Below are positions 13,732 through 17,800 of a stretch of 64,000 nucleotides of DNA, in pieces. The first letter of the stretch is position 1; each line of letters starts with the position of its first letter. The position numbers were made by a program, and so were the translations under genes. Where the stretch lies: contig OY969695.1 of assembly GCA_963701965.1 (NCBI GenBank), positions 4,512,001 through 4,576,000 of the forward strand, written 5' to 3'. The notes beneath the pieces were generated by a model. The model was not told the origin of the DNA. It did not search any database and was given only the letters and a program-made list of their open reading frames with translations. This stretch comes from an uncultured Gemmatimonadales bacterium. Its GTDB lineage: Bacteria > Gemmatimonadota > Gemmatimonadetes > Gemmatimonadales > Gemmatimonadaceae.

Positions 13732-14423
13732 AGACCATACCAATCGTGGCGCTGGATGTCCCGAGCCAGGAAGCCGCCTCGATCATCGTGTCCGCCCTCG
13801 GCGACCTCTGCCGGTTCTACAAGGTCGGCAGCGAGCTGTTCACGGCCGGCGGGCCCGCCGTCGTGCGCTCCCTGCGGGAGCACGACTGCGAGGTCTTTCT
13901 CGACCTCAAATGGCACGACATCCCCAACACGATCAAGGGTGCAGCCCGGAGCGCGGCCCGGATCGGCGCCCGGCTCGTCACCGTGCACGCCACCGGCGGC
14001 ATCTCGATGATGCGCGCCGCGGTCGAGGGAGCCAGCCAGGGCGGCGCCGGCTGCAAGGTCTTCGCGGTCACGGTGTTGACCTCGCTTGACGCGCAGCGCA
14101 TCGGCCAAGCGTGGGGGCGACCCAATATCGTGGTGATGGATGAAGTCCTGCGGCTCGCCGATCAGGCGCTCGAGGCCGGTGTCCGCGGGATCGTCTGCGG
14201 CGGCACCGAGGCGGCCGCCGTTCGCGCGCGCCACGGTGAAGCCCTCGAGCTCCTCGTGCCCGGCGTCCGTCTGGCCGGCAGCGCGTCCAACGACCAGGTG
14301 CGGGTCGTGACGCCCGCCGAAGCCGTAGCCGCCGGCGCCAACTACATCGTCGTCGGTCGAACCGTCACCGCGGCCCCGGCCCCGCGCGAAGCGATGCGCT
14401 CCGTCATTGACGCGGTAACCTAA
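13728..14423 (+). CDS. pyrF: Orotidine-5'-phosphate decarboxylase
   Basis: VALD, FLDLKWHDIPNT, VTVLTS, PGVR, VVGR. Confidence 0.95.
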   Translation: MKTIPIVALDVPSQEAASIIVSALGDLCRFYKVGSELFTAGGPAVVRSLREHDCEVFLDLKWHDIPNTIKGAARSAARIGARLVTVHATGGISMMRAAVEGASQGGAGCKVFAVTVLTSLDAQRIGQAWGRPNIVVMDEVLRLADQALEAGVRGIVCGGTEAAAVRARHGEALELLVPGVRLAGSASNDQVRVVTPAEAVAAGANYIVVGRTVTAAPAPREAMRSVIDAVT

Positions 14424-14478
14424 GCCGAATAATATTATGAGCTTGCCTAGAATTTTAACGTACTTGTAGGAGCAGCCA

Positions 14479-14595
14479 GTGAAAGTTCGGAGCAGCGTCA
14501 AGCCAATCTGCGAGCACTGCAAGGTGATCAAGCGGAACGGCGTGATGCGCATCATTTGTAAGCGCAACCCGAAACACAAGCAGCGGCAAGGGTAA
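14479..14595 (+). CDS. rpmJ: 50S ribosomal protein L36 (absent from the ORF track)
   Basis: Manual translation [46 protein letters not shown]. Confidence 0.97.
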
Positions 14596-15358: not shown

Positions 15359-15991
15359 GTGCGGTATCTGGGACCGAGTTGCCGGCAGTGCCGGCGCGAA
15401 GGCACGAAGCTGTTTCTCAAGGGCACCAAGTGCTTCACCGAGAAGTGCCCCGTCGAGCGGCGGCCATATGCGCCTGGCCAGCACGGTCAAAGCACCGCGC
15501 GGCGCCGGAAGTCGTCGGAGTATGCCAAGCAGCTGCGCGAGAAGCAGAAGATCAAGCGCATCTACGGCGTCAGTGAGCGGCAGTTCCGCAACACGTTTCA
15601 GCGCGTCGTGAAGCTGCCCGGCATCACCGGCCACGAGCTCCTCGCTTCGCTGGAGAGCCGGCTCGACAACATGATCTATCGGATGGGATTCGCGTCCAGC
15701 CGGAAGGCGGCGCGCCAGCTGATCCGGCATCGGCACGTCGAGATCAATCAAAAGACTGTCGATGTCCCGAGCTATCATGTCCGGCCCGGGCAGGAAGTCC
15801 GCGTGCGGCCCAAGTCGCGCGAGCAGGCGTCGATCCTCGTCGCCATGGAGCAATCATCGCGCGGCGCGTCCCTCTCGTGGCTCGCCGTCGACAGGGAGTC
15901 GTTCAGCGGCCGCATGCTGGAGCGTCCGGCCCGCGCGAACATCCCGATCGCGGCCCAGGAGCAATTGGTCGTCGAGTTGTACTCGAAGTAA
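15359..15991 (+). CDS. rpsD: 30S ribosomal protein S4
   Basis: CRREGTKLFLKG, QLREKQK, LESRLDN, VVELYSK. Confidence 0.98.
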   Translation: MRYLGPSCRQCRREGTKLFLKGTKCFTEKCPVERRPYAPGQHGQSTARRRKSSEYAKQLREKQKIKRIYGVSERQFRNTFQRVVKLPGITGHELLASLESRLDNMIYRMGFASSRKAARQLIRHRHVEINQKTVDVPSYHVRPGQEVRVRPKSREQASILVAMEQSSRGASLSWLAVDRESFSGRMLERPARANIPIAAQEQLVVELYSK

Positions 15992-16136
15992 AAGACGTTT
16001 TTCACAGACGCGGCCCCGAAAGGGTCCGCGCGCTGGTCGGGACTCTGACTCCCGTACGAGCCTACCGCGCGTCAGAGGCGGGGTGGGGCGTTGCCGGGCA
16101 CGGTCGCCCGGTATGACCACTGAGAGGAATAGCACC
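15992..16136 (+). ncRNA. Candidate structured cis-regulatory RNA with four hairpins and a 7-bp kissing loop
   Basis: Hairpins at 16009-16030 (GAAA loop), 16032-16061 (loop CTCTGAC), 16062-16086 (loop GTCAGAG) and 16092-16113. Confidence 0.6.
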
Positions 16137-17204
16137 ATGGCACAGACTATCGATCTTCGCGGCCTCGTCCGCCCCCAGCTCGTCGAAGCGACGAAGCGTG
16201 AGGACAATCCGAACGTCGCCGAGTTTCGCCTCCAGCCCCTCGAGCGCGGCTTCGGCCACACGCTCGGCAACGCGATGCGCCGCCTGCTGCTGTCGTCCCT
16301 CCGGGGCACCGCAGTCTGGGCGTTTCGCGTCGATGGCGTCGTCCACGAGCACCAGACGATCTCCGGCGTCGTCGAGGACGTCCATCAGATCATCGGCAAC
16401 CTGAAGACCCTGACGCTGGTGCTCGACGAGGGCCTGGAAGACGCCACGCTGCGCATCCAGCGCACCGGCGCTGGCCCAGTGACCGCGACCGATATCAATG
16501 TCGGCTCCGGCGTCCGGATCATCGATCCCTCGCACCACCTATTCACGCTGCAGGACGATCGCGACATCACAATGGACCTGTACGTCAAGCAGGGCCGAGG
16601 CTACACCGAGTCCGACCAGCACACGCTGGAGCGCGGCATGCCGATCGACGTCGTGCGCATCGACGCCATTTACAATCCGGTCCGCCGCGTGAACTTCTCG
16701 GTGGCCGAGACCCGCGTCGGTCAGCGCACCGACTACGACCGGCTCACGCTCACGGTCGAGACGAACGGCACGATCAGTCCGGAAGAGGCCGTCAGCTACG
16801 CGGCGGCGCTCGCGCAGACGCACTTCCAGTACTTCGTGGGTTTCGGTTCCCACACGTCGGCACCAGTCGGCGCCGGCGCCGATCTCGGCGGCGGCGACAG
16901 CGTCCGGCTCGCCGAGTTGCAGACGCCGATCGACGACCTCGAGCTGTCGGTCCGGTCGGTGAACTCACTCAAGAATTCCAATATCCGGTCCCTCGGCGAT
17001 CTCGTGCGCCAGACCGAAAGTCAGATTCTCCAGGTCAAGAATTTCGGCAAGAAGTCCCTGCAGGAGATCGCCGACCTGCTGGAACGCAAAGGGTTGAACT
17101 TCGGGATGCGGTACGAAGAGACTCCGGATGGCGTGCGGATCACCGATTGGGGCACGCCGCCGAGCCGGGCCGCCGCGAACGCGCCAGACGACGACGAGGA
17201 GTAG
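16137..17204 (+). CDS. rpoA: RNA polymerase subunit alpha
   Basis: PLERGFGHTLGNAMRRLLLSS, RVGQRTDYD, LELSVRS, NFGKKSL. Confidence 0.98.
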   Translation: MAQTIDLRGLVRPQLVEATKREDNPNVAEFRLQPLERGFGHTLGNAMRRLLLSSLRGTAVWAFRVDGVVHEHQTISGVVEDVHQIIGNLKTLTLVLDEGLEDATLRIQRTGAGPVTATDINVGSGVRIIDPSHHLFTLQDDRDITMDLYVKQGRGYTESDQHTLERGMPIDVVRIDAIYNPVRRVNFSVAETRVGQRTDYDRLTLTVETNGTISPEEAVSYAAALAQTHFQYFVGFGSHTSAPVGAGADLGGGDSVRLAELQTPIDDLELSVRSVNSLKNSNIRSLGDLVRQTESQILQVKNFGKKSLQEIADLLERKGLNFGMRYEETPDGVRITDWGTPPSRAAANAPDDDEE

Positions 17205-17210
17205 CACGCC

Positions 17211-17582
17211 ATGCGACACCGAAAGGCCGGACGGCAACTCCGCCGGACAAGCGAGCAACGGCTGGCGCTGTTGCGGAATCTCGCGATCTCGCTGATCGAG
17301 AGCGGCGCCATCGAGACGACCGAGGCCAAAGCCAAAGAGCTGCGCCCGTTCGTCGAGAAGCTCATCACCAAAGGCAAAGCCGGCACGCTGCACGCCCGGC
17401 GACTCGCGGCGCGCGATGTGCACAAGCGGTCCGCGGCTGATAAACTGTTCCAGGATGTCGCGCCCAAATTCGCGACCCGGACCGGTGGGTACACGCGCAT
17501 TCTCAAGACCGGGTTCCGGAAAGGCGATGGCGCGGAGATGGCGCGCATCGAGTTGATCGGCCTGTCCGAGGTGTCGTCATGA
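17211..17582 (+). CDS. rplQ: 50S ribosomal protein L17
   Basis: [28 protein letters not shown]. Confidence 0.98.
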
Positions 17583-17800
17583 TCGCGCGCAACCGATGCT
17601 ACTCGTGCGGTCGCGGCGTGGCGTTCGGCAACAACGTCTCGCACGCCAACAACAAAACCCGCCGCGTGTGGAAGCCCAACCTGCAGGTGGCCCGCGTTCT
17701 CCACGACGGCGTGATCACGAAGGTCAAGGTGTGCACGCGGTGTCTCCACGCGGGCAAGATCCAGCGCGCGCCACGGGGCGGCGGCGTTCCCGCCGCCTAG
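17579..17800 (+). CDS. rpmB: 50S ribosomal protein L28
   Basis: [20 protein letters not shown] with two CxxC pairs. Confidence 0.95.

Follow-up and report, generated by a model that had tools for sequence, protein, structure and literature searches.

A conserved RNA with a predicted kissing-loop four-way junction upstream of rpoA in one family of Gemmatimonadota

Introduction

Why should a bacterium of the order Gemmatimonadales keep a long, apparently structured spacer between rpsD and rpoA, and which of the surrounding genes does this spacer serve? The question touches on how bacteria balance the synthesis of RNA polymerase against that of ribosomes, a matter understood only in part. The E. 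coli rpoA gene belongs to an operon repressed by uS4 and yet is regulated independently (PMC10931766). A preliminary description of the locus had proposed four hairpins in this spacer, two of them joined through their loops, and had read them as a cis-regulatory leader. Here we describe a dedicated RNA element that is near-universal at rpoA across one Gemmatimonadota family, and which would represent either a new architecture and position for a ribosomal protein leader (r-leader) or a structured translational enhancer.

The rpsD-rpoA spacer and its operon

The window analysed is a stretch of 64,000 nt from a 5.1-Mb genome with 67% G+C. The genes downstream of the spacer are taken, from their translations, to be rpoA, rplQ and rpmB. 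The features of the locus are as follows.

14407-14435, + strand: sigma-70-like promoter match, heading the rpmJ-rpsM-rpsK-rpsD-rpoA-rplQ-rpmB operon
15359-15991, + strand: rpsD (uS4 with a cysteine-rich N-terminus), the upstream gene, stop codon at 15989-15991
16009-16030, + strand: hairpin P1 of the preliminary description, a real hairpin lying in variable 5' filler outside the conserved element
16119-16136, + strand: rpoA translation initiation region, predicted open, with the Shine-Dalgarno (SD)-like GAGAGGA at 16122-16128
16137-17204, + strand: rpoA, RNA polymerase alpha subunit, ATG at 16137, the first cistron after the element
17211-17582, + strand: rplQ (bL17), 6 nt past the rpoA stop
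17579-17800, + strand: rpmB (bL28), overlapping the rplQ stop

Three promoter-like sites were found where 0.4 were expected, all of them in the 14407-14435 region, and rpmJ starts with a GTG at 14479. No promoter-like site was found in rpsD or in the rpsD-rpoA spacer of the window, nor was a terminator-like site found in that spacer. The spacer measures exactly 145 nt between the rpsD stop (15991) and the rpoA ATG (16137), as first described. The four hairpins reported at 16009-16030, 16038-16054, 16062-16086 and 16092-16113 were recovered with identical strings and coordinates, as were the GAGAGGA ribosome-binding site at 16122-16128 and the 7-nt loops of the second and third hairpins (16043-16049 and 16071-16077), which are exact reverse complements. 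The accompanying statement that this junction is usually short holds for sister families but not for the window's own family (f1, whose closest RpoA relatives are mostly Gemmatimonadaceae), where the spacer has a median of 181 nt and a range of 81-367 nt.

Evidence for an element from the window's genome alone is modest. Folded by itself, the region reached z = -2.3, with 3 of 200 shuffles equally stable, and a loose pattern of two hairpins with complementary 7-nt loops 20-40 nt apart occurred 75 times on both strands of the genome, or about once per 136 kb. It is the comparative data from homologues, trees and metagenomes, given below, that remove a chance origin. An open frame at 15762-17204, running from the interior of rpsD through the spacer and in frame with rpoA, was also considered and is probably fortuitous because its length varies among homologues. 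As for RNA, a homologous stretch (L009) is present in 14 RNA runs of four studies, and in four runs contigs span its spacer unbroken, such contigs carrying no end, strand, level or single-transcript information.

The 5' part of the rpsD-rpoA spacers (L001-L110) is a highly variable filler of 4-274 nt between the rpsD stop and the element start, often consisting of long imperfect hairpins made of short tandem repeats. These filler hairpins are possibly family-typical extragenic palindromes.

The spacer could serve mRNA processing or stability, as had been suggested, with the hairpins and the fold marking a cut or protecting the rpoA-rplQ-rpmB part of the transcript and so altering its level relative to the upstream genes. 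Because rpsD and the spacer lack a promoter-like site, a separate rpoA message would need such a cut, and 55 of the 77 upstream fillers of at least 40 nt fold better than shuffles (z below -2). We nevertheless judge this role unlikely: spacing is held to the start codon and not to an upstream site (see below), the window's spacer has no terminator-like site, and none of the 61 genomes searched in the order yielded an RNase J over the TIGR00649 cut-off, which 8 of 14 control genomes exceed. The last result also weakens a reading in which the fold blocks a 5'-to-3' exonuclease.

Architecture and covariation of the element

A total of 110 loci were gathered by RpoA similarity, some representing the same genome twice. 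The rpsD end was present and the spacer extractable in 99 of them, and all 99 spacers contained the element; so did the 11 loci set aside, in which either the contig ended before rpsD (six) or rpsD was gone from the operon (five). The 86 distinct element cores were aligned with MAFFT (alignment A1). Mutual information ranked the true pairs first and exposed an additional pair at the base of P3. In the coordinates of the window, the predicted structure is composed of the following parts.

16035-16118, + strand: conserved element of 84 nt, a four-way junction (P0, P2, P3, P4) with a kissing helix between loops L2 and L3
16035-16038, + strand: P0 5' strand, pairing with 16115-16118 and closing the junction (92.8% paired)
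16039-16053, + strand: P2 hairpin of 4 bp (16039-16042 with 16050-16053) with the 7-nt loop L2
16043-16049, + strand: loop L2, 5' strand of the kissing helix, pairing with 16071-16077
16056-16091, + strand: P3 hairpin, made of 3 bp, a 2x1 internal loop, 6 bp, a mismatch, 3 bp and the 7-nt loop L3
16071-16077, + strand: loop L3, 3' strand of the kissing helix, pairing with L2
16092-16113, + strand: P4 hairpin, variable in length and sequence and missing in a minority subtype
16115-16118, + strand: P0 3' strand, with which the element ends, 18 nt ahead of the rpoA start

Over all 33 pairs, 97.3% of the cells in the 86 homologues are paired and 24 pairs show two-sided changes. None of 500 shuffles reached this level and slid controls gave 39-47%, a comparison that favours the structure since the structure was derived from the same sequences. 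By helix, two-sided changes occur in two of the four pairs of P0, four of four in P2 (99.7% paired), seven of 12 in P3 (98.7%) and six of six in P4 (91.9%). The mismatch in P3 is purine-purine (G.G, A.A or G.A) and the 3 bp beyond it are near-invariant.

Parts of the fold first proposed had to be revised. P1 does not belong to the element: with up to 4 mismatches it matched only the window's own spacer among the 99, and it has one copy in the genome. For the suggested extension of P2 (16032-16038 with 16054-16061), the homologues that pair at a given position number no more than 31-68 of 86; its bases instead form P0, which had been missed, and the 3-bp base of P3 (16056-16058 with 16089-16091). 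In 19 of the 99 spacers, as classified by script, P4 was scored as absent; this subtype has neither P0 nor P4 and its P2 is longer. P2, P3 and the kissing helix thus make up the core, and the lengthening of P2 where P0 is gone suggests that P0 stacks on P2.

The loop-loop pseudoknot of 7 bp that had been predicted from the window gained support from each comparative data set. Among the 86 homologues, 99.7% of the cells of the kissing helix are paired, 78 of them by two-sided change, and 14 loop types occur. Changes were counted on trees of rpoA DNA and of RpoA protein. Alignment columns 19 and 46, which form one kissing pair, each underwent 20 changes, and on the RpoA trees all 20 fell on branches shared by both columns; for pair 18-47 the shared changes were 5/5, and 4/4 on the protein tree; and eight shared changes were counted for pair 17-48 on the rpoA trees. 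Unpaired control columns gave 0-7 shared changes (DNA tree). An independent test was made by scanning metagenomes with a pattern in which the three middle loop positions were left free on both sides, which returned at least 120 stretches. Among the matches listed, 359 of 360 free middle-loop cells pair and all seven kissing pairs are intact in 119 of 120. When partners were shuffled, all three middle pairs formed in 32 of 120 on average. Of the 75 distinct cores among these matches, 52 were new with respect to the earlier set. Across homologues, trees and metagenomes, the predicted four-way junction and its 7-bp loop-loop helix are conserved with compensating changes.

Loop covariation and a search of Rfam had been set beforehand as checks, and neither came out against the element. 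The view that it belongs to no known family was borne out with Rfam 15: for window positions 15700-16400, the only match at E up to 10 was to a CRISPR repeat (E 2.5) and is put down to chance, and ten of the metagenome matches listed, searched with E up to 1, gave only sub-threshold microRNA matches on hairpins.

Kissing-loop aptamers are found in the lysine and purine riboswitch classes, and a multi-helix junction with a loop-loop contact directly before a start codon could in principle be a metabolite- or ion-sensing riboswitch of this kind. The alignment makes this very unlikely. The invariant columns are almost all paired, lying in helices and not in an unpaired core, and the junction strands, at 0-2 nt and variable, leave little room for a ligand pocket. 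One subtype does without P0 and P4, no riboswitch of Rfam was matched, and no expression platform was found, the window's spacer having no terminator-like site and the first 24 nt of the element no tendency to pair with the rpoA start (mean z 0.0).

Distribution across genomes

Model R1 gave a single match in the window's own genome (E 1.7e-18) and matched 146 of 150 family genomes in 63 of 64 genera, a tally that includes the unpublished genome G157. There is one copy per genome in 145 of the 146; the other (G171) has two, and also two rpoA matches. Three of the four genomes missed by R1 also lack rpoA in the assembly. The remaining one, G098, branches from within the family tree and has therefore probably lost the element. 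Its 128-nt spacer (L131/L335) keeps a P4-like hairpin and an SD sequence, and no kissing loops were found in it.

In a sample of the phylum, R1 matched 30 of 31 f1 genomes and none of 48 genomes of ten other families. Two of 70 genomes of f2 gave weak matches away from rpoA (E 0.007-0.009); located on other contigs than rpoA, they were taken as chance. No element was found at rpoA in the other families searched within the phylum. In 35 genomes of f2 and f3 the rpsD stop overlaps the rpoA start or lies within about 45 nt of it, and the spacers of about 5-185 nt in 30 genomes of f4-f12 contained no element by eye. R1 had no match in viral contigs, and in all the metagenome pattern matches listed RpoA is at least 72% identical to that of the window. 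On the sequences searched, the element is thus restricted to one family, where it occurs in single copy and fixed context, as opposed to the many copies in varied contexts of a repeat or mobile element.

Gene order and natural loss of rpsD

The downstream context of the element is constant. Among the metagenome matches listed, rpoA follows in all 115 that have room for it. In the family loci rplQ comes after rpoA (111/111) with a gap of -1 to 16 nt (109/110), and rpmB lies close behind rplQ on the same strand in all 106 loci where it was found. In f2 and f3, which have no element, rpmB is inverted relative to rplQ (19/19), and in more distant families it is separated from rplQ by another open reading frame (ORF) or was not found nearby. 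A shared terminator-like hairpin lies between rplQ and the inverted rpmB of f2 and f3 (L182-L201), and f4-f8 often have, between rplQ and rpmB, an ORF with a hydrophobic N-terminus. Relocation of the element to a position before rpmB in f2 and f3 was considered and rejected, rpmB being inverted there and R1 finding none in 20 loci (best E 0.34).

The upstream context does vary. Five genomes, which group as a single clade with support of 100, have no rpsD in the operon: there the element and rpoA come immediately after rpsK. The element is intact in these five genomes, scoring 89-92 bits with R1. The only match to uS4 in these genomes is encoded at another locus; it shares 43-48% identity, lacks the cysteine-rich N-terminus, and R1 found no element upstream of it. 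This divergent cysteine-free uS4 stands behind a pyrimidine-rich, SD-poor leader (L052, L062, L076, L084, L092; L353-L357). Among the metagenome matches listed, rpsK is upstream of the element in nine of 120, and two of these nine, which differ in loop type and RpoA N-terminus, may be separate events of rpsD loss; the sample of losses is accordingly one well-supported event plus two contigs outside the tree. Since it survives the loss of rpsD, the element belongs to rpoA-rplQ-rpmB and not to rpsD.

This persistence also bears on uS4, the sensing of which had been proposed at the outset. Alpha operons have uS4 as their known repressor, and four other leaders are predicted to bind it (PMC10931766, PMC7247131). 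The 5' leaders of the operon that were viewed are mostly short with no common fold by eye, no shared leader was seen there, and loss of rpsD does not preclude uS4 from acting in trans. Against uS4, the element stands downstream of rpsD, stays unchanged after rpsD is deleted and replaced, has no copy at the replacement gene, and lies in a region without Rfam S4 leader matches. Survival through deletion and replacement weakens uS4 as the ligand; on these comparisons it is an unlikely one, and a uS4 operator of the kind present in other alpha operons is barely plausible here.

In three genomes of genus g9, rpmJ is preceded by a separate, shared multi-helix leader in which the start region is predicted to be enclosed; the rpmJ leaders of the other 13 genomes viewed are mostly short and unstructured. 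We regard the g9 leader as a candidate second alpha-operon leader.

L340, 3608-3705, - strand: rpmJ leader of g9
L341, 3452-3549, - strand: rpmJ leader of g9
L342, 3386-3483, - strand: rpmJ leader of g9

Position at the rpoA start and proposed function

Between the end of the element and the rpoA ATG there are 13-25 nt in 77 of the 80 spacers that a script classed as four-helix, and 17-19 nt in 18 of the 19 that it classed as lacking P4. A site about 18 nt ahead of a start codon corresponds approximately to the upstream edge of the 30S footprint. Together with the covariation, this fixed spacing bears out the earlier proposal of a conserved cis-acting RNA tied to rpoA-rplQ-rpmB. The rpoA start region is predicted to be open (mean unpaired probability 0.69 across homologues), and pairing between the first 24 nt of the element and the start did not exceed that of shuffles (mean z 0.0; 2 of 99 below -2). 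Since the start is open and no conserved pairing of the 5' half with it was found, the element should be no SD-sequestering switch, and a two-state switch is not supported. From its placement, we consider that the element probably acts on rpoA translation initiation.

Predicted SD duplex energies add to this picture. In f1 the rpoA SD has a median of -4.1 kcal/mol and is weaker than -2 in 29 of 99 starts (the window's own is -6.0 kcal/mol), and the rpsD SD of the same loci stands at -10, with 37 of 37 strong. In f2 and f3, where the genes abut, the rpoA median is -2.2 kcal/mol. In f4-f12 it is -10 kcal/mol, with 29 of 30 at or below -4, although all these energies are crude predictions and the outgroup values lean strong because the starts were picked by a best-of rule.

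Our preferred reading, held with somewhat less than even confidence and by analogy with known operators, is that the element is an operator bound by a surplus ribosomal protein, most likely bL17, which throttles initiation on rpoA-rplQ-rpmB. P0 would stack on P2 and P3 on P4, placing P2 and P3 side by side so that the kissing helix could make a rigid module of them, bordering the 30S footprint on its upstream side. The surplus protein, bL17 in the likeliest case, would bind the folded element and block or trap the 30S subunit sterically without masking the SD; translational coupling would extend the repression to rplQ and rpmB. The choice of bL17 is a guess, made by elimination and from prior expectation. 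Of the two ribosomal proteins encoded downstream, it is the one that binds early, and salt-washed cores lack bL28 (PMC9687910); covarying motifs before ribosomal protein genes have been taken as r-leaders, with L17 among the predicted ligands (PMC7247131). Mycobacterial rpsO pseudoknots lying upstream of the initiation site still confer repression (PMC10931766). Within the phylum, an operator is consistent with the tight coupling of rplQ and rpmB in f1 and with the inverted rpmB of the element-less f2 and f3, a link that amounts to one evolutionary event. It fits less well with G098, which is without the element and yet retains a coupled rplQ-rpmB, with the adjacent gene being rpoA and not a ribosomal protein gene, and with the escape of E. 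coli rpoA from the ribosomal protein repressor (PMC10931766).

The weak rpoA SD of f1, set against the -10 of the distant families, fits a constitutive translational enhancer at least as well as it fits an operator. In such an enhancer, which we regard as a lesser but serious possibility, the rigid fold would dock on the 30S platform or on bS1 and let rpoA initiate alone now that this lineage no longer couples it to the gene upstream, even where the SD is weak or missing. In f1, rpoA is uncoupled from rpsD by 81-367 nt and yet 29 of 99 starts are almost SD-less, so that it may need help in initiation, whereas the abutting genes of f2 and f3 have weak SDs and strong ones serve rpoA in f4-f12 and rpsD in f1. 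The fixed spacing and the open start region suit docking equally. Pseudoknots are preferred ligands of bS1 and the 30S subunit, and structured mRNAs with a weak SD need bS1 to dock (PMC3858243, PMC10931766). However, a usable SD is present in 58 of the 99 family starts, the window's included, and the element is unchanged there; a simple hairpin would insulate the start; and the SD energies are crude, with a choice of outgroup starts that favours strong values. The enhancer and the operator bound by bL17 can coexist.

Binding of the fold by the alpha subunit, by RNA polymerase or by another non-ribosomal protein would be a form of autoregulation, in keeping with rpoA being the adjacent gene in every case with room among the matches listed, and with an element that is single-copy and independent of rpsD. 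We think it quite improbable, as no precedent was found in the literature searched and the window's genome has no second copy before its other RNA polymerase genes.

A broader and rather speculative possibility is that we are looking at a natural bacterial internal ribosome-entry element. It would have arisen when rpoA became uncoupled and would recruit the 30S subunit by shape to an often SD-less start, setting alpha synthesis apart from that of the small-subunit genes; gated possibly by bL17, it would tie polymerase output to 50S assembly.

These readings can be approached from several sides. The unusually clean covariation of the 7-bp kissing helix offers ready-made compensatory mutants, the P4-less form, the rpsD-less lineage, the loss in G098 and the SD-less starts are natural controls, and RNA libraries exist for one carrier.

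Comparison with known systems

The literature searched, as titles and abstract openings and with few subscription papers, contained no description of the element. It is not among the 20 r-leaders of PMC7247131, the main text of which makes no mention of Gemmatimonads or pseudoknots. The main text of PMC11109978 and the text of bioRxiv 10.64898/2026.10.21.760802 contain no Gemmat-, rpoA or rpsD, and the motif could be included in the 30 ribosomal-leader candidates of the former's supplement or in the supplements of the latter.

Likeness to ribosomal RNA was looked for in the window's genome. With filters off, R1 gave at best E 0.18, on the wrong strand, against the genome's own 16S/23S rRNA operon, and a second R1 match, to a P3-like hairpin in the 16S leader, was absent from ten loci of relatives and is attributed to chance; the 8-mers common to the element and rRNA are G+C-rich and uninformative. 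By eye, the shape of the element resembles two junctions of the window genome's 23S rRNA, at the 5' and the 3' end, which we take to be helices H5-H7 and H99-H101 with their protein partners. As the two junctions are different, mimicry does not assign a ligand. Mimicry of rRNA sites is frequent among r-leaders, though not universal.

The 16S rRNA leader has a structure of its own, a long hairpin directly after the 5' strand of the processing stem, with an internal loop that looks kink-turn-like by eye.

G000:C1:345667-345742, - strand, outside the window: 16S leader hairpin, also in L203-L207 and L210-L214

Its apical loop can pair just downstream by 4-8 bp in 11 leaders; in several the nearby partner changes with the loop, and three rows were scored with a farther partner. 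This loop pair resembles that of the rpoA element, and R1 does not detect it.

Junction hairpins joined by loop-loop pairs are known from the lysine and purine riboswitch aptamers, the SRP Alu domain and 23S H5-H7. The 5' junction of the window genome's 23S rRNA likewise presents a short hairpin followed by a long one, the latter capped by a short stem with a small loop. The element differs from such RNAs in having no sequence or model match to them, in a full 7-bp kissing helix with a freely covarying middle, and in the near absence of a conserved unpaired core.

New lineage-restricted leader motifs are found regularly. Like other r-leaders, the element has a covariation-supported structure and lies consistently upstream of ribosomal protein genes, with the difference that the adjacent gene is non-ribosomal. 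The r-leaders of Eckert and Weinberg (2020) are likewise lineage-restricted, supported by covariation and located at ribosomal protein genes of the alpha operon; they include predicted S4 leaders in Bacteroidia, Flavobacteria, Clostridia and Fusobacteriales, L17 leaders in Actino-Proteobacteria and the L17DE motif (PMC7247131). Those alpha-operon leaders stand before rpsM, rpsD or rplQ, or after rplQ, and none described in the main text starts at rpoA (PMC7247131). The L17 leader and L17DE adjoin rplQ, and the present element is set apart from them by its position before rpoA (PMC7247131) and, as far as Rfam 15 includes their models, by the lack of a match there.

The uS4 operator of E. coli is presumably the Alpha_RBS family of Rfam (RF00140). 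This nested pseudoknot at rpsM belongs to the same operon and is also a pseudoknotted element at a translation start; it covers the first cistron's ribosome-binding site and leaves rpoA unregulated (PMC10931766). The element described here is, in contrast, inside the operon and wholly upstream of the rpoA ribosome-binding site, is predicted to form a four-way junction with a kissing helix that has no Rfam match, and outlasts the loss of rpsD.

By analogy, the pseudoknot operators of rpsO (uS15) may offer the best functional model. In E. coli the rpsO pseudoknot adjoins the start and docks on the 30S platform with bS1 (PMC3858243); it has a part in translation as well as in repression, and the mycobacterial one is located upstream of the initiation site (PMC10931766). 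The rpsO operator is a simple pseudoknot before the ligand's own gene, whereas the present element appears as a kissing four-way junction before a non-ribosomal gene. The element is likely to be a translational control RNA of the leader type, new in both its architecture and its position.
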